Below are positions 2,565-15,993 of a DNA stretch of 64,000 nucleotides, in pieces (positions within the stretch are counted from its first letter, which is position 1; each line of letters starts with the position of its first letter). Under the pieces are notes generated by a model. It did no database searches. It was not told where the DNA came from and worked only from the letters and a program-made list of their open reading frames with translations. The DNA is taken from positions 64,001-128,000 of the forward strand of contig JAVJWO010000047.1 in the NCBI GenBank assembly GCA_040222015.1. Direction: 5' to 3'. This stretch comes from Coleofasciculus chthonoplastes F2-STO-03. Its GTDB lineage: Bacteria; Cyanobacteriota; Cyanobacteriia; Cyanobacteriales; Coleofasciculaceae. The translations under genes were made by a program, and so were the position numbers.

Positions 2565-2761
2565 CGGATAAGTAGGTAGGGATAATAAAAGTTAACGGCA
2601 CAGATCGTCATTACTAAACCCACCCTGCCAAATCATCAATAATTATCATATTTAATTGATTCTGTCAAGAGGTGATTCCGATAAAGCTAGATGTTAGCGT
2701 AGTGGAGCTAGTCCCTCTTTTTCGGCTGAGTCATAGGATAGCAGTAGGATCAAGCAGAGTA

Positions 2762-5700
2762 ATGATAGAACAGGATCTCAAAGGCGATCGCTCCTTAGTT
2801 TTAGAAACAGCATGGCAGCGATATGCCCAGCTTAAAACCCAAGCTGCAATCACTTATAGACAATATTTGAGTCTTCGGGGCGGATCAATTTTGCTCAGTG
2901 CGATCGCCACATTCCTAGCGGTGGTTATCGCCAGTACAGATAGGCAACTCATCGCCGCCCCACCGGGACGACTATTAATCATTGGTTTAGTTTTAGTTCC
3001 GATTATCAATGTGATCATTTTGGCGATTAGTCGCAACCTGCAACAAGGACAGTATTGGCAAATCCTCAATGCTGGTGCTGAGGAAATTCGCAAAACGATC
3101 TATCTGTATCGGACATTGCTACCGGGACAAGAGAATCGTCATCAATGGTTGAATGAACGAGTTACAGCGATTCAACGCCAGGTATTTGATAGTATTGGCA
3201 GTGATTTAGTAATGCAACCCTATACCGGTAATCTTCCCCCGGATGAGAGGGGCGAATACCAAAATCATGATCCGGGTTTTACGGATTTACTGCCCCCAGA
3301 TTACTTGCATTATCGCCTAGAAGCGCAACGGCAACAATATACCCAAGAACTCGCCCAACTCAACACCACTCGCACTCGCTTACAAATTATCCTGTTCAGT
3401 TTGGCTGGATTGAGTGCATTGTTACCCGTTTTAGGGGTGAGTGTCGGTGTCTGGGTGGCGTTTACCCTGTTTTTGGCAACAGCATTCAGCCTGTGGTTAG
3501 AACTAGGACGAATCGACGATCGCGTGAATGCGAATAACCAGCTAATTGTAGCTCTCAACATGATTCGCGATCGCTGGCAAACGTTAACCGCCAAAGAGCA
3601 GACAGGCGAGGAATTTTTTCAGATCGTGCTGGCGACAGAAAATACACTCTGGAATTACTATAGTCAACCAATTTCCGAACGGCGTCAAATTGCCACACCC
3701 TTGCTGGAGCCGAGTGATGATTTACTCACAGAAGCGCTCAAAGAACCTGTTGTCGAACTCCCCGAAGAATCAAACAAAGTTGAAACCCTAGCCGTTGCCG
3801 CCCAAACCCCCAAAGAAACGGTAACGTTGGAGGTAGTCAAAAAAGTTGAAGAACCTCCTCAGGAGCCGCCGAAAAAGGGATTACCTCATGCCTTTGTGGT
3901 CATGCCCTTTGGACGAAAAAAAGGACCCGATGGGCTTTGGATTGACTTTAACAGCATTTATCGAAACTTAATTAAGCCAGCCTTAGAAGAGGCAGGATTT
4001 GAGTCATTTCGTGCCGATGAAGAAATGGTTAGCGGCGATATTTTGACGGATATGTTTCAGGAGCTATTGCTCGCTGACCTAGTTCTGGCAGATTTAAGCA
4101 TTGATAATGCCAACGTATTTTACGAGTTAGGCATTCGCCACGCCCTGCGTAAGCGCGGCTTGATTCACATCCAATGTGGTCGGGCTTACATGCCTTACGA
4201 CATTTTCAATGTGCGAACACTCCCCTATCACTGTGATGATAGCGGTTGTCCTGACCCAGAGTATTTACACAAAGACAAGCAGGCGATCGTGAAAATGGCG
4301 CGTGCCACCTGGGATTCGGACAAAAACCGCATTCATAGCCCAATTTTCAGTATTTTAACCGGACTGGATGAACCCGATCGCAAGTCCTTGCAAACCCCCC
4401 TGGCAACCGGATACTGGCAGGAATACAAAGAATGGCAAGAGCGGGTGGTGCTTGCCCAGCGACAAAAGCGGATTGGGGATGTCTTGTTATTAACCGAAGA
4501 GGTAAGTAATCCCCTAATTAAAGAAGAAGCCCTGGCGGAAGCAGGGAAAGCCCTAAAAAATCTAGGCAATCATGCCCTAGCGCTCAAAGAATATCGCCAA
4601 GGCTTGAAAATCAACTCCAAAAATTCTGAGTTTCGTAAAGAAGAAGCCTTTCACCTCAGCCGCTTAAAGCAATTTGATGAAGGGATTGTCAAATTAGAAT
4701 CATTGCTCCAGGATGAACCCAGAAATATAGATGCACTCTGTTACTTAGCTCGCATTTACAAAGAAATGTGGCGCAATGAATGGAAAGAAATCTCAGATCA
4801 GCCGGAGCGGTTGAGCGCTGCCTATGATGCCGCTCACTTACTCAAAAAAGCCGTTGATACCTATCTCAAAGCCTATCGGCTGAATCACAATCACTATTAT
4901 GCTGGGATTAATGCCCTAACCTTATTAGTCCTTCTCGATTATTTAGTCCAGCATTGTGACATCGATAGTGATGCCGAAGGAGAAGCCCTGCGGCAACAGT
5001 TGCCCAATCTCAAAGGGGCGGTTCAATTCTGCCTGGAAAGTGCAGTTAAGACCAATGAAAATGATACCTGGGCGTATGTTTCCTTAGGAGATTTAGCGGT
5101 ATTAGCAGCCGACCATCCGAAACAGGTAATGCGAGCCTATAAAAAGGCGCTAACGCTACTTTGGAACAATAAATTTGCCCTAGAAGCCACCCTAAATCAA
5201 CTGGAACTTTTGGCGGCGCTTTCTTTCCGCCCGGAATATGTACAAGCAGGACAAGTGGTGATCCAAGGGGAACTCGACCGACTGAACAATCAAACGGCAA
5301 TAACGGCGGATGAGAGCGAACCAGAACCCACACAAGTTATCCTCTTTTCCGGTCACATGATTGATAGTCCCACCAGGGAGCAACCGCGTTTTCCCGCCGC
5401 CATGGAAAATGAGGCGCGGCAAAAAATTGAGGAGACTCTGGATAAGTTAAAACCCAGTACCAATTGCTTGGCAATTGCTCCCGGTGCAGCCTGTGGCGGT
5501 GATATTTTGTTTATCGAAGCCTGCTTAAAGCGGAATATGAAGGTGGAGGTATTTCTGCCCTTTACCCCAGCTCAGTTTATTCTCGAATCCGTTAGTTTTG
5601 CTGGGGATAACTGGGTATCCCGTTTCTATACAATTCAGAATCACCCTAATGTGTCGTTTAATCTGCAACCGGAACGATTGGGAGACGTGCCGATAGGGGA

Positions 5701-5923
5701 TAATGCCTTCGAGCGCAATAATCGCTGGGCGTTGTATTCTACCTTAATGTATGGCATTGATCGCGTGCGACTGATTGTTCTGTGGAACGGTAAAGGCGGT
5801 GACGCGCCCGGAGGTACAGGTGACATGGTTCATCAGGTACGCCACTTAGGAGGCGTGGTTGAGCATATTGATACCACCAAATTTGACTACTGGAACACGA
5901 GGACGAAGGTATTAGCCAGTTAA
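2762..5923 (+). CDS. Multidomain conflict-system protein: two SLATT-like 2-TM modules, NDT/DRHyd (ASK-like) hydrolase domain, TPR (DUF4071/TPR-S-like) region, C-terminal SLOG-like domain
   Basis: Two TM pairs each followed by a W-containing helix (QYWQILNAGAEEIRK; LWLELGRID); AFVVMPFG...RADE...ADLVLADLSIDNANVFYELG; TPR helices; VILFSGHMID...GAACGGDILF...VFLPF...LWNGKGGDAPGGTGDMV. Confidence 0.75.
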   Translation: MIEQDLKGDRSLVLETAWQRYAQLKTQAAITYRQYLSLRGGSILLSAIATFLAVVIASTDRQLIAAPPGRLLIIGLVLVPIINVIILAISRNLQQGQYWQILNAGAEEIRKTIYLYRTLLPGQENRHQWLNERVTAIQRQVFDSIGSDLVMQPYTGNLPPDERGEYQNHDPGFTDLLPPDYLHYRLEAQRQQYTQELAQLNTTRTRLQIILFSLAGLSALLPVLGVSVGVWVAFTLFLATAFSLWLELGRIDDRVNANNQLIVALNMIRDRWQTLTAKEQTGEEFFQIVLATENTLWNYYSQPISERRQIATPLLEPSDDLLTEALKEPVVELPEESNKVETLAVAAQTPKETVTLEVVKKVEEPPQEPPKKGLPHAFVVMPFGRKKGPDGLWIDFNSIYRNLIKPALEEAGFESFRADEEMVSGDILTDMFQELLLADLVLADLSIDNANVFYELGIRHALRKRGLIHIQCGRAYMPYDIFNVRTLPYHCDDSGCPDPEYLHKDKQAIVKMARATWDSDKNRIHSPIFSILTGLDEPDRKSLQTPLATGYWQEYKEWQERVVLAQRQKRIGDVLLLTEEVSNPLIKEEALAEAGKALKNLGNHALALKEYRQGLKINSKNSEFRKEEAFHLSRLKQFDEGIVKLESLLQDEPRNIDALCYLARIYKEMWRNEWKEISDQPERLSAAYDAAHLLKKAVDTYLKAYRLNHNHYYAGINALTLLVLLDYLVQHCDIDSDAEGEALRQQLPNLKGAVQFCLESAVKTNENDTWAYVSLGDLAVLAADHPKQVMRAYKKALTLLWNNKFALEATLNQLELLAALSFRPEYVQAGQVVIQGELDRLNNQTAITADESEPEPTQVILFSGHMIDSPTREQPRFPAAMENEARQKIEETLDKLKPSTNCLAIAPGAACGGDILFIEACLKRNMKVEVFLPFTPAQFILESVSFAGDNWVSRFYTIQNHPNVSFNLQPERLGDVPIGDNAFERNNRWALYSTLMYGIDRVRLIVLWNGKGGDAPGGTGDMVHQVRHLGGVVEHIDTTKFDYWNTRTKVLAS

Positions 5924-5929
5924 ATAAAT

Positions 5930-5957
5930 GTAGAGACGCGCCATGGCGCGTCTCTAC
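5930..5957. repeat. REP-like palindrome GTAGAGACGCGCCATGGCGCGTCTCTAC
   Basis: Perfect palindrome; related copies near 11432, 31279, 43017 and 47186. Confidence 0.85.
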
Positions 5958-6067
5958 AGGCTATCCTTGTTGCTCTTAAGGATTGACGTGGCTTAATCTT
6001 AAGATCATTGTCCTCGATGACACGGTTAAACTGATGGTTAAAATATTCTCTCTCTAGAGTCAATTCA

Positions 6068-7091: not shown

Positions 7092-8489
7092 GTGGCAAAA
7101 AAGAACTCTTACAGTCAATATCTTAGGCAACACCTGAGTAACTTAATCGAGCAGACGGACTTGCCCACCTTGAAAAAGGACTTTATGAAAGCCCGGTGGT
7201 TGGATCAAGTGCTGTGGCTGGAAGGACGGGCAACCAAGGAACGCGATCGCCATCACTCTTTGAGGTTACTAACGATTATCGGCGGTGTTATCGTTCCCGC
7301 TCTGGTGGGATTCAAAAGCCCAAATCCTCAGATCCAGGAAATTGTCGGCTGGAGTGCGTTTGGGTTGAGTCAAGCCGTAGCCGTTTCCGCCGCCGTGGAA
7401 GAATTTTTCGCTCATGGGGAAAAATATAAGCAATTCCGCAATACAGCCGAAAATATGAAAATTGAGGGCTGGCAATTCCTGCAAATGGCTGGACAATACA
7501 GTCAGTTTGAATCCCACGACGATGCTTATGCTACGTTTGCCTATCACGTTGAGCAGTTGATTCAGAAAGACGTGCAGGGTTTCGTCGCTCAGTTTGAAGA
7601 AACAGAAAAGAACAGCAAGCAAAAGACAGAAGAAACAGTGGCTCAAAATTCGGCTCTAGCCCTGGAGAATCTCAACCAGCAAATGGAGTATCAGGAGCAA
7701 TTGCGGCGACTTGAAGCGGAAAAACGCCGCTGGCGAGAAGAGAAAGAGCGTTTGGAAAATGAGCGTTCAGCGTCCCTGGAAGATGCGGAAAACAATGGGG
7801 AAGAGGTCCAGACTACCCCGGTTACTCTCGAAGACTTGCCCCCGCTAGGTGCCGCCGCAATGGTTTGGTTTGAAGAAGACGAACCGGAAGAACCCAAAAA
7901 ACAAGCATCGATGAATGGTCAAGGAAATAGTGAGCCAGCCAAACCCGCCGTACCCCAACTGATTACACCCGAACAAGCGTCCAAAATAATGGATTGTCCC
8001 CTAGACGATAGCCAGAAATATTTACCGGGGGTATTGGAGGCGCTGCAAGACTATGACATTTTGGATAAGCAGGTGCTAATTGGTTTACTGGCAACGGTGC
8101 GAGTGGAAACCAACGGGTTTAAACCCATTAATGAGTTTGGTGGAACAAAATATTTTACTAAACATTATGAAGGACGCCGGGATTTAGGCAACGTGCATCC
8201 AGGAGATGGAGCGAAGTATCACGGTAGAGGCTACATTCAGATTACGGGGAGAGCCAATTATCGCACGTATGGGCAAAAATTGGGGGTGGATTTGGAGAAT
8301 AATCCTGAATTAGCTCTAGACCCGGAAATTTCTGCTAAGATACTAGCTTGTTACTTCAAAGATAGAGGAGTCGCCACTGCTGCAAAAGTGGGAGATTGGC
8401 GTAAAGTCAGAAAATTGGTGAATGGCGGCTATAACGGTTGGGATGTTTTTTCTAAGTATGTTGAGAAAGGTAAGGCGGTAATTGGTTAA
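7092..8489 (+). CDS. DUF4231/SLATT 2-TM domain, coiled coil, acidic linker, C-terminal GH19 lysozyme/chitinase-like domain
   Basis: RWLDQVLWLE...IIGGVIVPALV...RNTAENMKIEGWQF (DUF4231-like); VETNGF...INEFG and YHGRGYIQITGRANY...NPEL...VNGGYNG (GH19). Confidence 0.85.
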   Translation: MAKKNSYSQYLRQHLSNLIEQTDLPTLKKDFMKARWLDQVLWLEGRATKERDRHHSLRLLTIIGGVIVPALVGFKSPNPQIQEIVGWSAFGLSQAVAVSAAVEEFFAHGEKYKQFRNTAENMKIEGWQFLQMAGQYSQFESHDDAYATFAYHVEQLIQKDVQGFVAQFEETEKNSKQKTEETVAQNSALALENLNQQMEYQEQLRRLEAEKRRWREEKERLENERSASLEDAENNGEEVQTTPVTLEDLPPLGAAAMVWFEEDEPEEPKKQASMNGQGNSEPAKPAVPQLITPEQASKIMDCPLDDSQKYLPGVLEALQDYDILDKQVLIGLLATVRVETNGFKPINEFGGTKYFTKHYEGRRDLGNVHPGDGAKYHGRGYIQITGRANYRTYGQKLGVDLENNPELALDPEISAKILACYFKDRGVATAAKVGDWRKVRKLVNGGYNGWDVFSKYVEKGKAVIG

Positions 8490-8492
8490 GGT

Positions 8493-8693
8493 ATGGAACC
8501 CACAGAAGAAGTTTTTTTTCAAGTTCAGGAACTCAAGGAAGCGATTCAGGAACTTAAAGAGCAGATCAAAGCAATGCAATCGATAAATGAGGTGCAGCAA
8601 GAGTCAATTACGTCTTTAATTGCTCTGTCTCAGAAGCAAACGACGGTGATTGAGCAGCAAACCTCTGTGATTCAGCAATTGGTGAGTCAGTAA
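8493..8693 (+). CDS. Small coiled-coil protein
   Basis: Starts 3 nt after the upstream stop with AAGG in front; heptad Q/E-rich pattern. Confidence 0.6.
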   Translation: MEPTEEVFFQVQELKEAIQELKEQIKAMQSINEVQQESITSLIALSQKQTTVIEQQTSVIQQLVSQ

Positions 8694-8755: not shown

Positions 8756-11380
8756 TTAATGCAATACTCTGACCAGCTCCTTAATTTTGGCAGACTGCCG
8801 ATCCTTGAATTGATCAGGGAAACTTAATTCTAGCGCGATTTTATTCGGCGAAGAACTACTGCTATCCCCCGGAACCAGAATTTCTAATGAGAGAATTTGG
8901 GTTAAAAATCGCTCCCGTGATTGGCTAATGGCGTCTTGACTTAACAGCAAGCCCACTAAGGGTTTTTCTTGCTGCATTTTCTTTAAATTATCAGGCTTAA
9001 GTAATTTAGCATTCGATGTAATAGAATCATCGAGTTCTAATCGCAAACTTGTCGCCCCAATTGCGGTCACTGTTGCCAAATAAAAGTCTCCTTCCCAAAA
9101 CAATTGAGCTGAAGCTTGAACCCGTTTGCGGACTTTTACTGCCCCTTTATCCACCTTAAATTCCTGGAAAGCACGGAAAAGACCTGTAGCCAAAAATCCT
9201 AAAGACTGCAACGGTTTATCCACATATTCCCGTGTTTGTGAATACCATTCCTTCACGTCGGAATACGTCACTAAGGTTAAATTATCTCGCTGGGATTGGG
9301 TGACATTAATAAACTTAACCGCCAATTCCATTTGATGCTCATTGACCGACTTTGCCACCACAATCTGAGCCTCCATAATCACCCTTGCCCCATAATCACC
9401 CACCAATTCAACTTCGATTTCATCGGGTAAATTGGGTTGACCTTCGACTTCTAAGATCATTCGAGTTCCGGTTTCCGAAACATCCAGCGTCACGCCACTC
9501 CAACTTTTGTCATAGCTGTAAATTGTTGCCCCCAGCCGTCGCCGTAAGCGGTGGGCGGTGCGTTCTTGGGGTTGTTCAAAGGCAACCAGTAATGCTGCCA
9601 TTAACAGAGTTAAGTTAAAAACACACCACAAGGCGTTAACCAAAACTGCCTCTGTATCCTCTGGACGTAGGATCAACCAAAAAGGAACAGACGCTAATCC
9701 TAACACCACCAAACCGGTTATACTTAACAAACCCCGTACAGATTGCCAATCAAAATTGGAGAAGCTAAATTCCCGTTTAATCAGGGTCATGTCTTTGTCC
9801 GTGACGTTAAAAGAACCCAGATTGGGATTAATTAACGCCATTGTCGTCACATACCCCGCCTGGAATGCCATGACAAATTCAAAAATTTCATTCCAGAAAG
9901 AAAAGCGCACATGCTTATACGTAATGTAGTTGGTATTAAGGGATAAGAGAATATGAGGAAGTGCATAAGCCAAGGTTTCCAATCCCAAACCCTGAATCGG
10001 GTTGATTCTAAACAATAAGAATAGGGTTGGCGCGATCGCATAAATCAGTCGGGGATAACCGTAGAAGAAGTGAGATGTGGCGCTGAAATAACAAATCCGC
10101 TGGGGAATCGTCAAGTTTAGCTTACGGTTTAACACTGGATTTTCAATCCGCAAAATCTGCGCCATACCCCGCGCCCATCGGACTTGCTGACCCACATAAG
10201 AGGAAAAGTTCTCTGGGGCGAGACCCGCAATCATGATTTTATCGTAGTAAAATGACTTGTATCCCAGAGAATGCAATCGGAATGCAGTATGACAATCTTC
10301 AGTTACGGTTTCGGTAGCAATCCCACCCACTTGTAGGGCATATTCTTTGCGAATGACTGCCGCTGAACCACAGAAGAATGCCGCATTCCAAAAGTCATTT
10401 CCTTTTTGGAGGACTTTATAAAATAACTCATTACCAACTGGAATCCTGCCATCTGTACGCAGGTTCCGTTCAAAAGGATCGGGATTAAAAAACCAGTGGG
10501 GGGTTTGCACAAAAGCCAGTTTTGGATCAAAAAAGAAGCCCGCTACGTGTTTAAGGAAATCTCGGACAGGAATATGATCACAGTCAAGAATCATGACCAA
10601 ATCCCCTTTGGTGCGACGAAACGCGGTATTAATATTCCCCGCCTTGGCATGTTCGTTATTATCCCGCGTCATCATCGTGCAGCCAACTTCTTCGCACATT
10701 TTTCGTAATTTTTCGCGACGGGCTTTATATTTCTCGGCTCGACCATCATCTAAAACATAAACCTTTTTTTTGTCTTCCGGATAGTCAATTGCAATGGCTC
10801 CAATTGCCGTTTTGCGGACAATTTCGACATCTTCGTTATAGGTGGGAATATAGATATCGACCTTGGGCCACTGGTCTTGAGGATATGCCGACAAATCGAC
10901 CGGTTCACGGTCTTGAATATGCAAGGTTTGAAAATAAGCTAGGACTAGGGTGAGGATGGCATAGAGTTCAGCGATCAACAGCAATACACAAAATAAGCCA
11001 TTGATAAAGGCATCAAAGTTGAGCGTGTAGTTGAGGCGATAGTAAAGATATCGAGATGTGGTGACTAAACTTAACCACACTAAAAAGAGGTGATAGTACT
11101 CACTAATTTGTTGATCATTAACCCGGTTTTCCGCTCGCACAACCACTTGCCCGATCGCCAAAACAAAAAAAGCGACAACCCCTTGCTGCCAAACCTTGAG
11201 TGGGGTAATCACTAGGGGAATCGAAATCACCAGTAGAAATAGAACCAGCCATTTTAAATGACTGATACCAATGCGTTCCAATGTACGGTCAAAAAACCGA
11301 GGCAGAACATCAACTAGCCAGTCAGTGGCAAAAGGGCGTCGGGGACGAAATCGCTGGAATTTAGATGAAAATGAGGACAT
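8756..11380 (-). CDS. bcsA: Cellulose synthase catalytic subunit (GT2 plus PilZ)
   Basis: DDG, HAKAGN, DCDH, FFCGS, TED and QQVRW motifs; PilZ motifs RTAHR and DVSETG; multiple TM helices. Confidence 0.93.
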   Translation of the reverse strand: MSSFSSKFQRFRPRRPFATDWLVDVLPRFFDRTLERIGISHLKWLVLFLLVISIPLVITPLKVWQQGVVAFFVLAIGQVVVRAENRVNDQQISEYYHLFLVWLSLVTTSRYLYYRLNYTLNFDAFINGLFCVLLLIAELYAILTLVLAYFQTLHIQDREPVDLSAYPQDQWPKVDIYIPTYNEDVEIVRKTAIGAIAIDYPEDKKKVYVLDDGRAEKYKARREKLRKMCEEVGCTMMTRDNNEHAKAGNINTAFRRTKGDLVMILDCDHIPVRDFLKHVAGFFFDPKLAFVQTPHWFFNPDPFERNLRTDGRIPVGNELFYKVLQKGNDFWNAAFFCGSAAVIRKEYALQVGGIATETVTEDCHTAFRLHSLGYKSFYYDKIMIAGLAPENFSSYVGQQVRWARGMAQILRIENPVLNRKLNLTIPQRICYFSATSHFFYGYPRLIYAIAPTLFLLFRINPIQGLGLETLAYALPHILLSLNTNYITYKHVRFSFWNEIFEFVMAFQAGYVTTMALINPNLGSFNVTDKDMTLIKREFSFSNFDWQSVRGLLSITGLVVLGLASVPFWLILRPEDTEAVLVNALWCVFNLTLLMAALLVAFEQPQERTAHRLRRRLGATIYSYDKSWSGVTLDVSETGTRMILEVEGQPNLPDEIEVELVGDYGARVIMEAQIVVAKSVNEHQMELAVKFINVTQSQRDNLTLVTYSDVKEWYSQTREYVDKPLQSLGFLATGLFRAFQEFKVDKGAVKVRKRVQASAQLFWEGDFYLATVTAIGATSLRLELDDSITSNAKLLKPDNLKKMQQEKPLVGLLLSQDAISQSRERFLTQILSLEILVPGDSSSSSPNKIALELSFPDQFKDRQSAKIKELVRVLH

Positions 11381-11431
11381 ATTCAATGGTAAGGGTTAGT
11401 GAACAAGAAGGTAGAAGGCAGGGGGAGCAAT

Positions 11432-11582
11432 GTAGAGACGTTGCATGCAACGTCTGGGAGCTGGGGGAGCTGGGGGAGCAGAGGGAGCTGGGGGAGCTGG
11501 GGGAGCTGGGGAAGATTTTCCCAATGACAAATGACCAATGACCAATGACCAATGACAAATGACCAATGACAAATGACCAATA
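11432..11582. repeat. Composite intergenic repeat: REP hairpin, 9-bp (GGGGGAGCT)n array and 7-bp (CAATGAC/AAATGAC)n STRR
   Basis: Tandem arrays directly visible between bcsB and bcsA. Confidence 0.85.
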
Positions 11583-11583
11583 A

Positions 11584-14160
11584 CTAATGACTCTTTTGAT
11601 CACTAAGTCGCTTGAGATAGAACTGAGAAATCCCATAGAGCAAAAGCGCGATCGCGAAAATGCCAGCCGGTAAGAAAAACCAATTGTCTTGAATAAAGCG
11701 TGACACCTTACTCAACACTCCCGTATTTTCAATCCGACGAGTCGAAGGCGCACGTTCTAAGAATTCCAATGTGTAGGCATCCGGATCATAGCTAGCCGAA
11801 TCTTGCTGATTGCTGCTGATCAGTACCGTATCTTCCTGGAGTTGGAAGAAAAACGGATCTTTCTTAATCACCTCAAGCACTCGTGCTAACCCATTCGATG
11901 TCTGTGCCGTTAGCGCCAACAGCACCCGTTCCTTGTTATCAGGTGACATAACTTCCTTAATCATGCCTTCGTTATCCGGTAAGGCTTGAATGCTGCCTTG
12001 ATTCCATTGGCGAGAAAAAGCATTCCGTAAGCGGAAACCACTGCCATCAAACACCTCGGGGAAGGGAAATTGCTCTCTGGTACCAATTCCCACCAAATGG
12101 TGACTCTCGCGCACCTCAGCAGGCAACGTTGTCGTTGTATAGGCATCTAAATTAACTGAATCTGCCTTACTCAGTCGTCCCAGACGTTCGCTAATAGTTA
12201 ACAACGTCAGCAAATCCGTATTACTCGGAGAATCCGGCACAACAATCGCGGTTCTGGACAAATCCTGGGGTGCAGCAAAGGGATAACCTTCCTGGAACAG
12301 TTCTAAATCGGGGAGTTGTACCGATTGTTGGCGGTTCAGGTTGAAGCTAGTGTCTGCATGGAGAGTTCCCGTCAATTGTTGGTCAGTGACTTTACCACAT
12401 ACACCCGGTTCTCTGGGATTGAGGCGGAATGCCACTTCCACTTGGGAATCGGGTTTAATTAAGTGCGGCGGTAAATCTACCTTCAATCGTTTTCGCTTGG
12501 CACCGTCTTCTGAACTCAACCGCGCCCCACCGATAAACGTTCCATCCAGTAAGACTTCTACCGCAGAAGTCCGGGGATTAACTTGCGGACTATAGCTATA
12601 GTGCATAGTCATGGAACTTCCCCGCGCAAATTGGTCATCCGGCAAAGCGTGAAAATCAATCAGAATTGGGGGGGCGCCTGACCCGCGTACCGTGATGTCT
12701 TGAAATGGCTCCCCGTTGGCTTGGGTTTGAATTTCGCTGAGGGTAAAGGAATTTTTTTCCGGTAAATAACCGGGCCAATTCCGGAGTGATGGTGTGTCTA
12801 CCTCTTTGAGGCTATTCACCAATACAGCTTGACCTGTACCAAATTTACGGCTGTCAGGCTGGACTAAAAACTGGGCAGCTTTGGCAACACCGTCCGCCCC
12901 ATTGCCTGTCACCACTAAAACGGGAACTGCTCCATCTAAAGTCGTGGTCATCATTAAGATACCCACGTCACTGGGTAAAGCGACTTGGTTCCCATCTAAA
13001 ATTTGATTCCCACTGATGCTAAAGGGCAGATCCAAATCCGCTAATGCAGGTTGTTCGGCGGGTGTGCCAATGACGACCAACCGTTGACCCCACTCGACAT
13101 CCTCTAAATCGTTGATGATTTCCGTATCAATGGGACGGAATTCTGCCATTCTGCCTAATGCGGCTTGAAAGCGAGACGCGGCGGTTAACCAGGTGTCGTT
13201 AACCTTGGGCAAGAGATAAACAATGCGATTGGTATCTAAACTGAGGTCGTCAAAGAAAGGATAGGGATAGCGGCTAAAGTTGAGCGGAATCGGTTGGGGC
13301 TGATATTCAAACTGTAATTCTGAATCCGGTAGTACTTCTGTCCAAAGCGTGGGGTCACCCGGATCGCTACATTTTTCGTCATTGCTTTGGCGAGCGACAA
13401 TTGTCAGTTCGTTATAGTCCTGAATCAGTCGAGAGGGGACGTTGAAGAGGACGCTGCCGATTTCCGATTGTTGGCGGTTGAGGGGGACTGAACCCACACT
13501 TGTGCCATTAACTCGGACGGTGAGATTGGAGTCCTTGGCAATTAGGGCAGGTGAATGCTGGAACCGAATTAGGGCTTTCGCCCCTTGGATTTTCCAGCCC
13601 CGGGGACGGGTAAAGCCGAGTCGCGCTTCAGAATACACCCCTCGGAAGCGGAAGCGGTTCCCGACGATGGGGGAGCGATTGAATTGCAGGATGTATTCTT
13701 CTGTGGGTAAGGGTTCAGCCTCTGCCGTTTCTTCCTCGCGAGCAGGTGAGGAGGATGCAGGAGAACGACGTGCGGGTGCAGGTTCTTCGGGTTCAGTTGA
13801 TGCCGGTGCGGAACGAGTGGGCTGGCTCTGCGGCGGCGGTTGACTAGGTGCAGGCGTCGTTCGCTTGCGCGTTGGCGATGTGGATTTTTTCGGGGGAGAC
13901 GCCGGAGCGGGTTTGTAAACAGGTTCTTTCTGGGGCGTGGTGGGTAGGGTATATTCACGAATTAACTGATCTTCCTGCTCTTGCAGGCTACTGTCGCTTT
14001 GAGCGACGGCAAAGTTGGTCGTGATCACCAGCCCGACGACTAAAACGCTACACAGAAGCAACAATCCGAGTCGCGTTCCTGTAGATACACGGGTGGAGCG
14101 CTGACGTCCGCGATGGGTGGAAGGATTTGGAGATTGGGAGTGACGAAACAGGCGTTTCAT
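11584..14160 (-). CDS. bcsB: Cellulose synthase periplasmic co-polymerase subunit
   Basis: Signal peptide, Pro-rich linker, BcsB-like repeats (SNLTVRVNG, YPYPFFD, LPDLELFQEGYPF), C-terminal TM helix; adjacent to bcsA. Confidence 0.88.
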   Translation of the reverse strand: MKRLFRHSQSPNPSTHRGRQRSTRVSTGTRLGLLLLCSVLVVGLVITTNFAVAQSDSSLQEQEDQLIREYTLPTTPQKEPVYKPAPASPPKKSTSPTRKRTTPAPSQPPPQSQPTRSAPASTEPEEPAPARRSPASSSPAREEETAEAEPLPTEEYILQFNRSPIVGNRFRFRGVYSEARLGFTRPRGWKIQGAKALIRFQHSPALIAKDSNLTVRVNGTSVGSVPLNRQQSEIGSVLFNVPSRLIQDYNELTIVARQSNDEKCSDPGDPTLWTEVLPDSELQFEYQPQPIPLNFSRYPYPFFDDLSLDTNRIVYLLPKVNDTWLTAASRFQAALGRMAEFRPIDTEIINDLEDVEWGQRLVVIGTPAEQPALADLDLPFSISGNQILDGNQVALPSDVGILMMTTTLDGAVPVLVVTGNGADGVAKAAQFLVQPDSRKFGTGQAVLVNSLKEVDTPSLRNWPGYLPEKNSFTLSEIQTQANGEPFQDITVRGSGAPPILIDFHALPDDQFARGSSMTMHYSYSPQVNPRTSAVEVLLDGTFIGGARLSSEDGAKRKRLKVDLPPHLIKPDSQVEVAFRLNPREPGVCGKVTDQQLTGTLHADTSFNLNRQQSVQLPDLELFQEGYPFAAPQDLSRTAIVVPDSPSNTDLLTLLTISERLGRLSKADSVNLDAYTTTTLPAEVRESHHLVGIGTREQFPFPEVFDGSGFRLRNAFSRQWNQGSIQALPDNEGMIKEVMSPDNKERVLLALTAQTSNGLARVLEVIKKDPFFFQLQEDTVLISSNQQDSASYDPDAYTLEFLERAPSTRRIENTGVLSKVSRFIQDNWFFLPAGIFAIALLLYGISQFYLKRLSDQKSH

Positions 14161-14581
14161 AGGAGAACTATTACGGTTGATGGAAATGCCCAGTTTTTAT
14201 TGCTTGGGAACTAACTTATGCGATTCCAACTATCTGGAATTCGGGGATGTTTAAACGAGGCAATTTACGGTGTTGGGTTAGGCGATTGCTTGACCCAACT
14301 GATTGTTGCCAAACGGACAAACTCCCCCTAAACGATGGCAAGCCACATCGTTTACTAAAGAAATCCACTAGAATTAGGCGTGTTTGTAGATAGCATTCCC
14401 GCTTCAGTCCAACGAGTAACAGGTTGACTGAACCCGGTTATTTGTAGAAACGGTGGTGACATTTTCTAGTCCTCTGAATCGGTATTCGACTCGATGCCAC
14501 CCTGATATAAGATGCGATTATTCGGGTTACGAATAAATTCTTAATGGTTTAAAGCCTTGACAGAGGAGATTGACCTCTGTA

Positions 14582-15859
14582 TCATTTCCTTATTGCATTT
14601 CTGGAAAACTGCTGCTGGGATTGGAAAAATTCGGAATTCATTACCAGGTCAGGTGATACAAGGGCGAGCCAGGCTAAGTTTTGAGTATAGTAGGCAGATT
14701 CATCATCCCAAATTCCCTGATTGTATTGGGGTACAAGTTTACTCTCTAATAGTTGTTCAGCTAGAGCCGGATTAATTAAGCGCATAGCGATATAAAGCAT
14801 GGCATATTGGGAGGTGGCATCGTATTTAACTAATGATTCTCCATCGAGGTTAATGCGAGCTGGCAAGCGAGAAGACGATTGCCATTGATCTTCAAGGTAT
14901 TGGGTTGCTGTTTTCAGGTAATTGAGTGCCTCCGTTGATTGAAACCATTCGGCATCCCAAGCGACTCGCCACCAGACGCGATACGCATCAAAGCTATATA
15001 CGCTTTTCAGTTTGCTTTGTGGGGGTATGGACTGAAATTGATTGGTCTGTAAATTCAAAGCAATCCAGTCACTCGGTAACCCAACCGCCGAAACTTTAGA
15101 GGAGTTTTCTAAGACGTAGTAGCTACTATCTATCAAACTCAGCCAGTCTCGTTCGGGATCAACCTGAGCAAACAGGCGAAACGCATAAGGGGCGAGATAG
15201 GAGGGATTAAGATAAAGCGTTGATGGCGAAGGGACAAAGGCTTCCTTAGGTCCAGGAAGGAGATAACGCTTGCCATCGGGTGCAGCGATGGTGGAGTAGT
15301 CCCACAAATCGCGCAGCTTGATTCGCGCTAACTCCAGGTAGTCTGGGCGATTCCAGCGGCGGGATGCCCAAATTAATGCGGTAATCGCATCAATATCAGC
15401 ATCGCTGGCAAAATTTCGATCAATGGCACCCCAATTTTCCTGATCATCTTGACCCCACAGCCAAACCCAAAGATTGTCTTCAGGTTCGCCAGTTTCTGAG
15501 AGTCGATGCAGGTTCGCTTCTGCCCAGTCTAAGGTGAGGGCAAATGTGTTTGGGTCATTAATCAATACAGCCCTGAGCATAGCGTAGGCTTGTCCCTCTG
15601 AAGTAGAGCGATCGCTCGCTTCGTAGTCGATTACTCGACCGTCTTCTTGAATAAATTGTTGTCTGTAGATGACCCAGCTTTGTTCGAGTATATCCTGGAT
15701 AGGCGGCGATGGGGATAAAACGGGAAAATCAGCCACAGGGGAAGCCGTTACAGGAGAGGGAGAAGGGGAAACCGAGGCTTCCGGTGGTTCAGGTTCGGAG
15801 AATTTTATGGATACACAACTGGTGAGATTCAACAGCAGTAACATAGCGCTTGTAGTCAT
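14582..15859 (-). CDS. bcsZ: GH8 endoglucanase (BcsZ-like), probable lipoprotein
   Basis: STSEGQAYAM, ASDADID, LNPSY and FDAYRVWW motifs; lipobox LTSC; the longer ORF start lies inside an STRR array. Confidence 0.88.
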   Translation of the reverse strand: MTTSAMLLLLNLTSCVSIKFSEPEPPEASVSPSPSPVTASPVADFPVLSPSPPIQDILEQSWVIYRQQFIQEDGRVIDYEASDRSTSEGQAYAMLRAVLINDPNTFALTLDWAEANLHRLSETGEPEDNLWVWLWGQDDQENWGAIDRNFASDADIDAITALIWASRRWNRPDYLELARIKLRDLWDYSTIAAPDGKRYLLPGPKEAFVPSPSTLYLNPSYLAPYAFRLFAQVDPERDWLSLIDSSYYVLENSSKVSAVGLPSDWIALNLQTNQFQSIPPQSKLKSVYSFDAYRVWWRVAWDAEWFQSTEALNYLKTATQYLEDQWQSSSRLPARINLDGESLVKYDATSQYAMLYIAMRLINPALAEQLLESKLVPQYNQGIWDDESAYYTQNLAWLALVSPDLVMNSEFFQSQQQFSRNAIRK

Positions 15860-15917
15860 GCTTGTAGTCAGCGCTTTAGCGCTTCTTCTGCTAAAGTGCC
15901 TACTACGAACCCAGTGA

Positions 15918-15993
15918 TTTGTCCTTTGTCCTTTGTCCTTTGTCATTTGTCAGGGAATGGGGAATGGGGAATGGGGAATGGGGAATGGGGAAT
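15918..15993. repeat. STRR heptamer arrays (TTGTCCT)n and (GGGAATG)n
   Basis: Direct tandem repeats. Confidence 0.85.

Follow-up and report, generated by a model that had tools for sequence, protein, structure and literature searches.

SLATT proteins and other two-helix immune membrane effectors are thought to kill the cell by depolarising or perforating its membrane. In the SLOG-SLATT conflict systems, reportedly described by Burroughs et al. in 2015 in the work that is said to have given SLATT its name, an LSDAT-type SLOG gene lies beside a SLATT effector and a TPR sensor. Here we describe a related locus in a stretch of 64,000 nucleotides (hereafter, the window) from the cyanobacterium Coleofasciculus chthonoplastes F2-STO-03 (contig JAVJWO010000047.1, positions 64,001 to 128,000), in which a SLATT (DUF4231) membrane module is fused, through a long helix and an acidic linker, to a glycoside hydrolase family 19 (GH19) domain of the phage endolysin type. 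The fusion protein is probably a Thoeris-like suicide effector, gated by a nucleotide signal, that opens up the membrane and thereby gives its tethered muramidase access to the wall.

The system is closest to type VII Thoeris and to the SLOG-SLATT systems. Type VII Thoeris is a validated anti-phage system that consists of a TIR protein and a SLATT effector, ThsH; according to the preprint, the phage-activated TIR protein makes cyclic ADP-ribose (cADPR), supply of cADPR halts the growth of cells bearing the system, and the SLATT effector, the presumed cADPR target, is modelled as a membrane-spanning homo-oligomer (bioRxiv 10.64898/2025.12.03.692087). SLATT had been predicted earlier to form pores in response to nucleotides and to be associated with SLOG sensors (PMC7159879). 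In the literature on SLATT/DUF4231, SLOG, GH19 endolysins and Thoeris, to the extent that its text was accessible, we found no fusion of SLATT with a lysozyme; the 2015 SLATT paper and the supplements of the preprint could hold one.

Architecture of the fusion protein

The first residues of the fusion protein (MAKK...; Table 1) align from residue 1 in 20 homologs, and the GTG start is therefore correct. The protein is a true member of the SLATT/DUF4231 family, with scores far above the curated cut-offs: Pfam DUF4231 (PF14015) covers residues 38-143 (E 6.9e-28; 97.5 bits, cut-off 24.7) and NCBIfam SLATT_1 (NF033634) matches residues 31-167 (E 1.9e-26, 92.6 bits against a cut-off of 41). The hydropathy profile contains two membrane-length stretches only, separated by a loop of 9-10 residues, and no hydrophobic stretch past residue 120; the N-terminus is hydrophilic and rich in Lys and Arg (11 such residues among the N-terminal 55), so that the protein lacks a signal peptide. 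An AlphaFold2 model, obtained from an alignment of 55 homologs (mean predicted local distance difference test score, pLDDT, of 79), consists in this region of helices at residues 7-21, 26-72, 79-106 and 108-130 followed by a very long helix at 142-228; the hairpin of two transmembrane helices by which SLATT is recognized is thus present both in the hydropathy profile and in the model (helices 26-72 and 79-106). The N-terminal helices of the model and those that follow the second membrane helix lie on the same side, and the hairpin would have both of its ends in the cytoplasm. A DUF4231-like domain with two transmembrane helices and the absence of a signal peptide had both been proposed in a preliminary description of this gene, and the profile scores and the hydropathy bear this out.

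In an alignment of 79 sequences, identity to the SLATT module of the window does not fall below 47%, and 26 columns are invariant; conservation within the protein is highest in the SLATT helices that lie outside the membrane. Comparison of the SLATT part of the model with approximately 48,000 solved chains yielded generic helical matches only (Z of at most 8.7), and its only match among the PHROG families is phrog_7395, whose function is unassigned (E 1.1e-12).

At the other end of the protein, the model contains a confident globular domain at residues 293-464. Its match to Pfam GH19 (PF00182) is partial (E 2e-7, 31.5 bits against a cut-off of 25.5), and it matches PHROG 181 'endolysin' (phrog_181) with E 1.6e-48. 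The top sequence match in the PDB is the PWe2 endolysin 9ms7 (E 7.6e-22), to which the domain is also similar in fold (Z 23.7, root-mean-square deviation of 2.2 A over 176 residues); two other endolysins score nearly as high (9eoi, Z 22.9; 8p8e, Z 21.7), whereas chitinases score lower (Z 17.7, 16.9 and 15.6), and Foldseek matches the SPN1S endolysin 4ok7 to the domain with E 1.7e-7. Both E339 and E348 are invariant in 55/55 GH19-type homologs and coincide, in the alignment, with the two corresponding Glu residues of the SPN1S endolysin. The spacing between them is that of E51 and E60, the catalytic residues, nine positions apart, of PaGH19Lys (9eoi), which has been shown to be a muramidase inactive on chitin (PMC12329726). 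The GH19 domain, the two candidate catalytic Glu residues, the GRGYIQITG motif (beginning at residue 378) and the assignment to the phage-endolysin type, all of which had been read from the letters of the DNA, were confirmed by these comparisons. Judging by sequence and modelled fold, the enzyme genuinely belongs to the GH19 endolysin subfamily, of the kind that cuts peptidoglycan and not of the chitinase kind, and it is predicted to have muramidase activity.

A search with the GH19 part alone returned 1010 proteins at E <= 1e-10. Among the best 120 of these 1010, from which the domain content was taken, the closest non-SLATT relatives are 56-68% identical to the GH19 domain and carry peptidoglycan-binding domains (PF01471, PF09374), some of them together with C39-like or YkuD domains; the GH19 domain thus derives from the cyanobacterial pool of peptidoglycan enzymes. 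The SLATT-fused forms lack the peptidoglycan-binding domains of these free relatives. Considering that the closest free relatives are ordinary peptidoglycan-binding enzymes, that membrane-tethered wall hydrolases exist and that the locus is present in RNA-library assemblies from natural mats (see below), the protein could be taken for a membrane-anchored housekeeping muramidase with both ends in the periplasm, engaged in constitutive wall remodelling, with SLATT as a mere anchor. This scenario appears hardly credible: an N-terminal stretch of 55 residues with 11 Lys/Arg would need to traverse the membrane unaided by a signal sequence, such conservation of the extramembrane SLATT helices (26 invariant columns in 79 sequences) is unexpected of an anchor, the fused forms have lost the very domains that bind the free relatives to peptidoglycan, and cytoplasm-type partners (SLOG, TIR) are conserved neighbors.

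Between the membrane module and the enzyme lie a single helix, presumably a coiled coil, and a linker with pLDDT below 50 across residues 228-284, which we read as disorder; residues 235-295 include 12 acidic and 3 basic residues, in line with the coiled coil and acidic linker proposed previously. In 53/53 fusions (that of the window and those of 52 related loci described below), the SLATT-to-enzyme linker consists of 120-237 residues and is net acidic. Within it, six columns of a short motif, L249, P250, L252, G253, A256 and W259, reach a conservation of 90% or more in the 55 homologs (consensus LPPLGxxALxW). A strict W-x-[DE]-[DE] pattern, found in only 20/53 fusions, was dropped as a general linker motif. 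Acidic sequences recur in SLATT forms with a 190-residue tail (locus L050, 8511-9089), which contain three acidic repeats of the type EEDDDEF-x-P-x-Q; the tail of 363-aa (amino acid) SLATT forms is of low complexity, with acidic repeats, and has no PDB match. The linker motif and the acidic tail repeats may be docking sites for TPR or WD40 sensors.

Table 1. Features of the fusion gene and of the adjoining region of the window
Feature	Position (nt)	Strand	Basis or remarks
SLATT(DUF4231)-coiled coil-acidic linker-GH19 (predicted muramidase) fusion	7092..8489	+	465 aa, GTG start, reading frame open
SLATT/DUF4231 module, residues 1-165	7092..7586	+	Pfam/NCBIfam matches, hydropathy, model helices
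Membrane helix 1, residues 56-74	7257-7313	+	hydropathy
Membrane helix 2, residues 84-106	7341-7409	+	hydropathy
Long single helix, presumed coiled coil, residues 142-228	7515..7775	+	AlphaFold2 model
Acidic disordered linker, residues 229-292	7776..7967	+	pLDDT, charge
Conserved linker motif LPPLGAAAMVW, residues 249-259	7836-7868	+	alignment of 55 homologs
GH19 endolysin-type catalytic domain, ~residues 290-465	~7959-8489	+	profile, sequence and fold matches; 7968..8486 when taken as residues 293-465
Predicted catalytic E339 (VET)	8106-8108	+	alignment
Predicted catalytic E348 (INE)	8133-8135	+	alignment
Large upstream gene (BIG), 1083-aa reading frame	2672..5923	+	Pfam matches; N-terminal helical part, SLATT_1 two-helix module (211-328), middle domain, TPR-S/TPR (635-752 and on), C-terminal domain
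Middle domain of BIG, 204 residues	3845-4456	+	almost invariant across 13 homologs
LSDAT_prok SLOG protein, 252 aa	6068..6826	+	Pfam LSDAT_prok, E 7.9e-72
66-aa Gln-rich coiled-coil reading frame	8493..8693	+	begins 4 nt after the fusion stop
Cellulose synthase operon	8756-15946	-	convergent with the cassette
BcsA with PilZ domain	8756-11386	-	
BcsB	11584-14160	-	
GH8 glucanase	14582-15946	-	

Distribution of the fusion and exchange of its enzyme

A search with the full-length protein returned 577 proteins at E <= 0.001. Among the best 120 of these 577, in which the architectures were counted, approximately 68 have both PF14015 and PF00182 (Coleofasciculus, Spirulinaceae, Leptolyngbya, Leptothoe, Moorena and others), and in 20, from Nostocales, PF14015 is joined to PF00959, the family of GH24 phage lysozymes; the ESM Atlas contains a 57-member cyanobacterial cluster with the DUF4231 and GH19 architecture. 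With one genome scanned per species, 238 relatives were confirmed and 78 loci retained; they come from cyanobacterial records, apart from two uncultured-bacterium contigs and two contigs of a metagenome-assembled genome labelled Sericytochromatia. A lysozyme fusion is encoded in 52/78 of these loci (53 fusion loci with the window), and so the architecture is widespread and not a peculiarity of this assembly. The named taxa with the lysozyme fusion are, we take it, filamentous, and the SLATT-only forms are presumably found mainly in unicellular or colonial taxa. The genome that contains the window also encodes, elsewhere (contig C197, 5629-5901), a second, shorter DUF4231 protein in a 283-aa open reading frame (ORF).

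ORF prediction in the 78 loci, followed by scoring against the domains found in the window, yielded 81 SLATT modules, second copies included. The C-terminus is a GH19 domain of the window's type in 33 of these, a second GH19 subtype in 3 and a GH24 domain in 17; a coiled coil only follows the module in 7 and an acidic low-complexity tail in 2, 15 are bare SLATT, and 4 are cut by the contig end. In a quick maximum-likelihood tree of the SLATT modules (SH-aLRT support only; ORFs with fewer than 140 aligned SLATT residues left out), these seven C-terminal classes require at least 16 changes, or 13 when the four cut rows are set aside. GH24 requires 3 changes, all forced by well-supported branches, and GH19 requires 9, of which 4 are so forced; one GH24 protein is nested within the clade of the second GH19 subtype. 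The catalytic residues are kept in all three enzyme families found at the C-terminal position; in the GH24 triad, E is retained in 17/17 proteins, D in 15/17 (C in the remaining 2) and T in 17/17. Given that unrelated muramidase families with intact active sites interchange on one module, wall cutting looks like the function that is maintained by selection, and the enzyme swaps are the strongest argument for it.

The same swaps bear on the idea that the lysozyme-like domain does not cut the wall of its own cell, and instead binds or senses muropeptides in the cytoplasm, thereby gating the SLATT pore, or is released by proteolysis to act on another target. The conserved short motif within the linker is compatible with such a role, and how a folded domain on a tether would get across the membrane is unexplained under wall cutting. 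That the catalytic residues are invariant whichever of the three enzyme families is present argues for catalysis and not for binding, and a muramidase would have no polymeric substrate in the cytoplasm, which makes such a role improbable in our view.

Signaling genes and a putative second hydrolase in related loci

Neighboring genes were counted in the 53 fusion loci, window included, to a distance of at most 8 kb in either direction; as many contigs end sooner, absences are soft. A triple-TIR protein is encoded near the fusion in 30/53 loci, an LSDAT SLOG gene in 34/53 and a TPR-S protein in 11/53, with at least one of the three in 48/53. In 33/52 related loci, the LSDAT SLOG gene lies within 5 kb of the lysozyme fusion, and triple-TIR giants are found among the neighbors of 11 fusion loci that have no SLOG gene. 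SLATT proteins are recognized also by a neighborhood link to SLOG, SMODS or TIR genes, and in the window a SLOG gene adjoins the fusion. Abortive infection or cell sacrifice, the setting suggested in the preliminary description, is the one to which these neighbors point: SLOG, TPR-S and triple-TIR proteins are signaling components of the kind that drive abortive infection.

The triple-TIR proteins consist of three tandem TIR domains fused either to CHASE2, in which case a DUF928 gene follows, or to 12-14 WD40 repeats (locus L010, 3690-6833; L023, 3746-7921; L060, 3561-7778; and others). They adjoin SLATT genes in approximately 42/78 loci, including those of unicellular cyanobacteria. Four layouts can be distinguished (the signs > and < give the coding strand): TIR3-CHASE2 > DUF928 > SLOG > SLATT-GH24 > 111-aa ORF > 447-aa ORF in Nostocales; TIR3 < M15 < followed by SLATT-GH19 > SLOG > in Leptolyngbya and Leptothoe; TIR3-WD40 > SLATT-GH19 (second type) > 111 aa > 447 aa in Floridaenema and Phormidium; and, in unicellular forms, TIR3 > homolog of the C-terminal part of BIG > bare SLATT.

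A second hydrolase-like gene is frequent in these neighborhoods. An M15_3 peptidase protein is encoded near the fusion in 20/53 loci, a 447-aa relative that shares its N-terminal domain with the M15 protein in 18/53, and one or the other in 38/53. The M15 or 447-aa gene thus lies beside 38/53 lysozyme fusions, as against 1/24 enzyme-less SLATT (cut rows left out), an association that we treat as a lead. Neither protein has an N-terminal hydrophobic segment; both would therefore need a membrane lesion to reach the wall, like the tethered muramidase, and a second hydrolase without a signal is what a shared exit through the lesion would lead one to expect. In cassettes of the Nostocales and Phormidium type, two genes follow the SLATT-lysozyme gene, for 108-111 aa and 447 aa (L010, 9527-9859 and 10004-11347); the same pair is found in L006, L008, L009, L011, L013-L019, L021, L023 and L025-L028, and the proteins have no Pfam or PDB match, although that of 447 aa may contain a His/Cys motif similar to that of YkuD.

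The cassette of the window and its surroundings

In the window, four genes follow each other on the same strand: those for the 1083-aa SLATT_1/TPR-S protein (BIG), the LSDAT_prok SLOG protein, the fusion protein and the 66-aa ORF. Because homologs of BIG align from approximately residue 31, its true start is probably near nt 2762. The Pfam matches of BIG are TPR-S (E 5e-17), SLATT_1 (E 4.1e-12) and MAP3K_TRAF_bd (E 5.2e-7), and a profile of the whole protein matches only TPR among the PDB sequences. The C-terminal domain gives a weak signal of the SLOG superfamily (YAcAr in 5/18 members, best E 0.0025). An assignment of this domain to LSDAT was rejected (hhalign probability of 0.1%). The strand-helix pattern of the middle domain fits a Rossmann-like fold, which makes it a candidate for a signal-making or signal-binding domain; the weak hints to its identity are a PADLOC TIR match (E 8.7e-5), Nuc_deoxyrib_tr in 5/13 members (E of at least 0.088) and DNPH1 chains (E ~1).

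The LSDAT SLOG gene lies 266 nt upstream of the fusion gene and is the only copy in the genome; its glycine-rich motifs are invariant in 42 homologs, and the protein is presumed to be the receptor of a nucleotide signal. The 66-aa ORF is kept in the same position in 14 related loci, with 50-97% identity, and has no Pfam match. It is a real fourth gene of the cassette, absent from the previous gene list, and might serve the effector's long coiled coil as a brake or partner. The preliminary description had proposed a holin and endolysin in one protein; the fusion stands, the single-protein device does not, the protein being the effector of a multi-gene cassette with the 66-aa ORF downstream and often a peptidase gene. 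A perfect 30-nt palindrome, present as a single copy in the window, lies between BIG and the SLOG gene (5929-5958); in RNA-library contigs its depth is approximately 10 times that of the adjoining sequence, assemblies break there, and the lineage probably has it as a dispersed repeat.

Both parts of the fusion protein match PHROG families, the enzyme those of endolysins and the SLATT part phrog_7395, as would be the case for the remnant of a prophage lysis cassette (holin and endolysin) without a function in the host. Such an origin is extremely unlikely. Among the ORFs of the window and their Pfam matches, no phage genes flank the fusion gene; the base composition of the region is unremarkable, different genera share the gene order and have the reading frames intact, and the genome has one copy of the cassette.

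A scan for promoters and terminators found nothing above the shuffled expectation. In metatranscriptomes, a relative approximately 95% identical is present in contigs of 4/4 runs, covering the cassette, and one contig in each of the 4 runs spans the SLOG and fusion genes, with DNA carry-over possible; these RNA-library contigs, with uncovered parts and contig ends left out of account, weakly support expression of the cassette.

Mode of action and purpose

If the fusion protein is a suicide effector gated by a nucleotide signal, it would rest as a two-helix hairpin in the cytoplasmic membrane, with both ends in the cytoplasm, where the muramidase, which has no export signal, could not touch peptidoglycan. 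A threat, most likely phage infection, would be detected by a sensor, here the TPR-S protein encoded two genes upstream and in relatives the triple-TIR protein with WD40 or CHASE2. A small-molecule signal would then be made and be read by the adjacent SLOG protein and/or by the cytoplasmic helices of SLATT, upon which the SLATT modules would assemble into a membrane lesion, possibly an oligomeric pore. The muramidase, on a flexible linker of 120-237 residues, would pass through the lesion or be exposed by it and cut glycan strands, and the cell would lyse; the trigger may be a phage or a developmental cue. The interpretation given in the preliminary description is supported, in this form, by the comparative tests.

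More tentatively, and with doubt prevailing, the whole set of genes could be a lysis cassette owned by the host and controlled by immune signaling. In response to a TIR/SLOG signal, SLATT would form a lesion that serves as the holin for both the tethered muramidase and the signal-less peptidase, with the small coiled-coil protein as a brake; an infected or designated cell would be dissolved out of the filament, which would cut its connections to the neighbors, and the repeated exchanges between GH19 and GH24 would be the trace of an arms race with phage inhibitors of the enzyme. If this is true, a host system reproduces the holin-endolysin logic of phages under immune-type control. The restriction to filamentous hosts bears on how an infection is stopped, or a cell removed, in a chain that shares periplasm and sacculus; a pore effector would then have gained wall hydrolases for a multicellular purpose, and bacteria would possess, in programmed cell excision, a kind of tissue-level immunity. 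The system also offers an experimental handle: lysis is easily scored, the Glu pair is easily mutated, and the natural GH19, GH24 and enzyme-less variants on one scaffold can serve as controls.

A number of observations weigh against a nucleotide-gated suicide effector that acts on the wall in an immune response. A folded domain of 20 kDa would need a large membrane lesion. The contig of the window carries no TIR gene (no TIR_2 match), and the triple-TIR genes of this genome sit on four other contigs; the middle domain of BIG could not be identified as a TIR domain (hhalign probability of 0.2% against TIR_2 of the neighbors' triple-TIR proteins), its AlphaFold2 model is poor (pLDDT 54.6), and Foldseek gave no match for it at E <= 0.001. 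Likewise, the M15 homolog of this genome is encoded on another contig, away from any SLATT, SLOG or TIR gene. Among the fusion loci at large, 5/53 have no visible signaling partner, a soft absence, and the link between peptidase and fusion rests on five phylogenetically independent contrasts, for which a sign test is not significant (median p 0.5). The RNA-library contigs show presence in RNA libraries and cannot prove transcription. Finally, the cassette is flanked by housekeeping genes (pdxA, the cellulose synthase genes bcsA and bcsB, and GH8) and not by a defense island, and among the PADLOC models of known defense the SLOG protein has no match, the fusion has one at chance level only, and there is no match at the level of a system; in Nostocales, moreover, the triple-TIR partner carries the extracytoplasmic sensor CHASE2 and is followed by DUF928, a combination that suits an envelope or external cue.

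The last of these points, together with the flanks, the adjoining cellulose synthase operon in particular, and the PADLOC result, would be in accord with the same device being used for a developmental or social purpose, namely programmed lysis of chosen cells of the filament, cued by CHASE2, WD40 or TPR sensors; examples of such lysis are sacrificial cells that break filaments and free motile fragments, and release of cell contents into the mat. The apparent distribution, with the lysozyme fusion in filamentous taxa and the SLATT-only forms mainly in unicellular or colonial ones, speaks for this purpose as well. The TIR and SLATT pairs tested to date, on the other hand, act against phage, SLATT, SLOG and TPR-S have all been defined in conflict systems (PMC7159879), and no developmental gene is linked to the cassette in the loci examined. 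We therefore regard developmental lysis as a serious rival on purpose, not on mechanism, if on balance an unlikely one.

Comparison with known systems

The described systems with which the cassette can be compared fall on two sides, the lysis proteins of phages and the immune systems of bacteria. With a phage holin and its canonical endolysin it shares a presumably cytoplasmic, predicted muramidase that has no signal, belongs to a phage endolysin family and would rely on a membrane lesion, and with the two-enzyme lysis cassettes of phages it shares the second, signal-less peptidase-like gene that is often present. Unlike in phages, the membrane part is SLATT, with no holin family among the Pfam and PHROG matches, the enzyme is covalently tethered, control appears to be exerted by immune-type signaling genes and not by a lysis clock, and the context is chromosomal and not a prophage. 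In SAR endolysins, too, a muramidase is held inactive by association with the membrane. These enzymes have one weakly hydrophobic N-terminal helix right before the catalytic domain and are exported by Sec; here, in contrast, two helices are followed by approximately 190 residues of coiled coil and linker before the enzyme. The GH19 endolysins PaGH19Lys (9eoi), SPN1S (4ok7) and PWe2 (9ms7) share with the fusion the fold and the Glu pair nine residues apart. They are free soluble enzymes of approximately 180-220 residues, whereas here the domain forms the C-terminal third of a membrane protein.

On the immune side, the cassette resembles the SLOG-SLATT conflict systems, as reportedly described, in that an LSDAT SLOG gene lies beside a SLATT effector and a TPR sensor. 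The likeness to type VII Thoeris consists in a SLATT membrane effector encoded beside TIR signal generators (30/53 fusion loci) and in the expected logic, in which a signal would lead to SLATT assembly, a membrane breach and cell death; ThsH and this SLATT are likened here by description and not by sequence. The differences are that a predicted muramidase is tethered to SLATT, whereas ThsH is described in the preprint, in which the word lysozyme does not appear, as a SLATT protein, that the TIR partner is a giant triple-TIR protein with WD40 or CHASE2, and that a separate SLOG protein is usually present in the cassettes. An adjacent TIR gene, the defining feature of type VII Thoeris, is missing from the contig of the window, and the system of the window is therefore not classed as type VII Thoeris.

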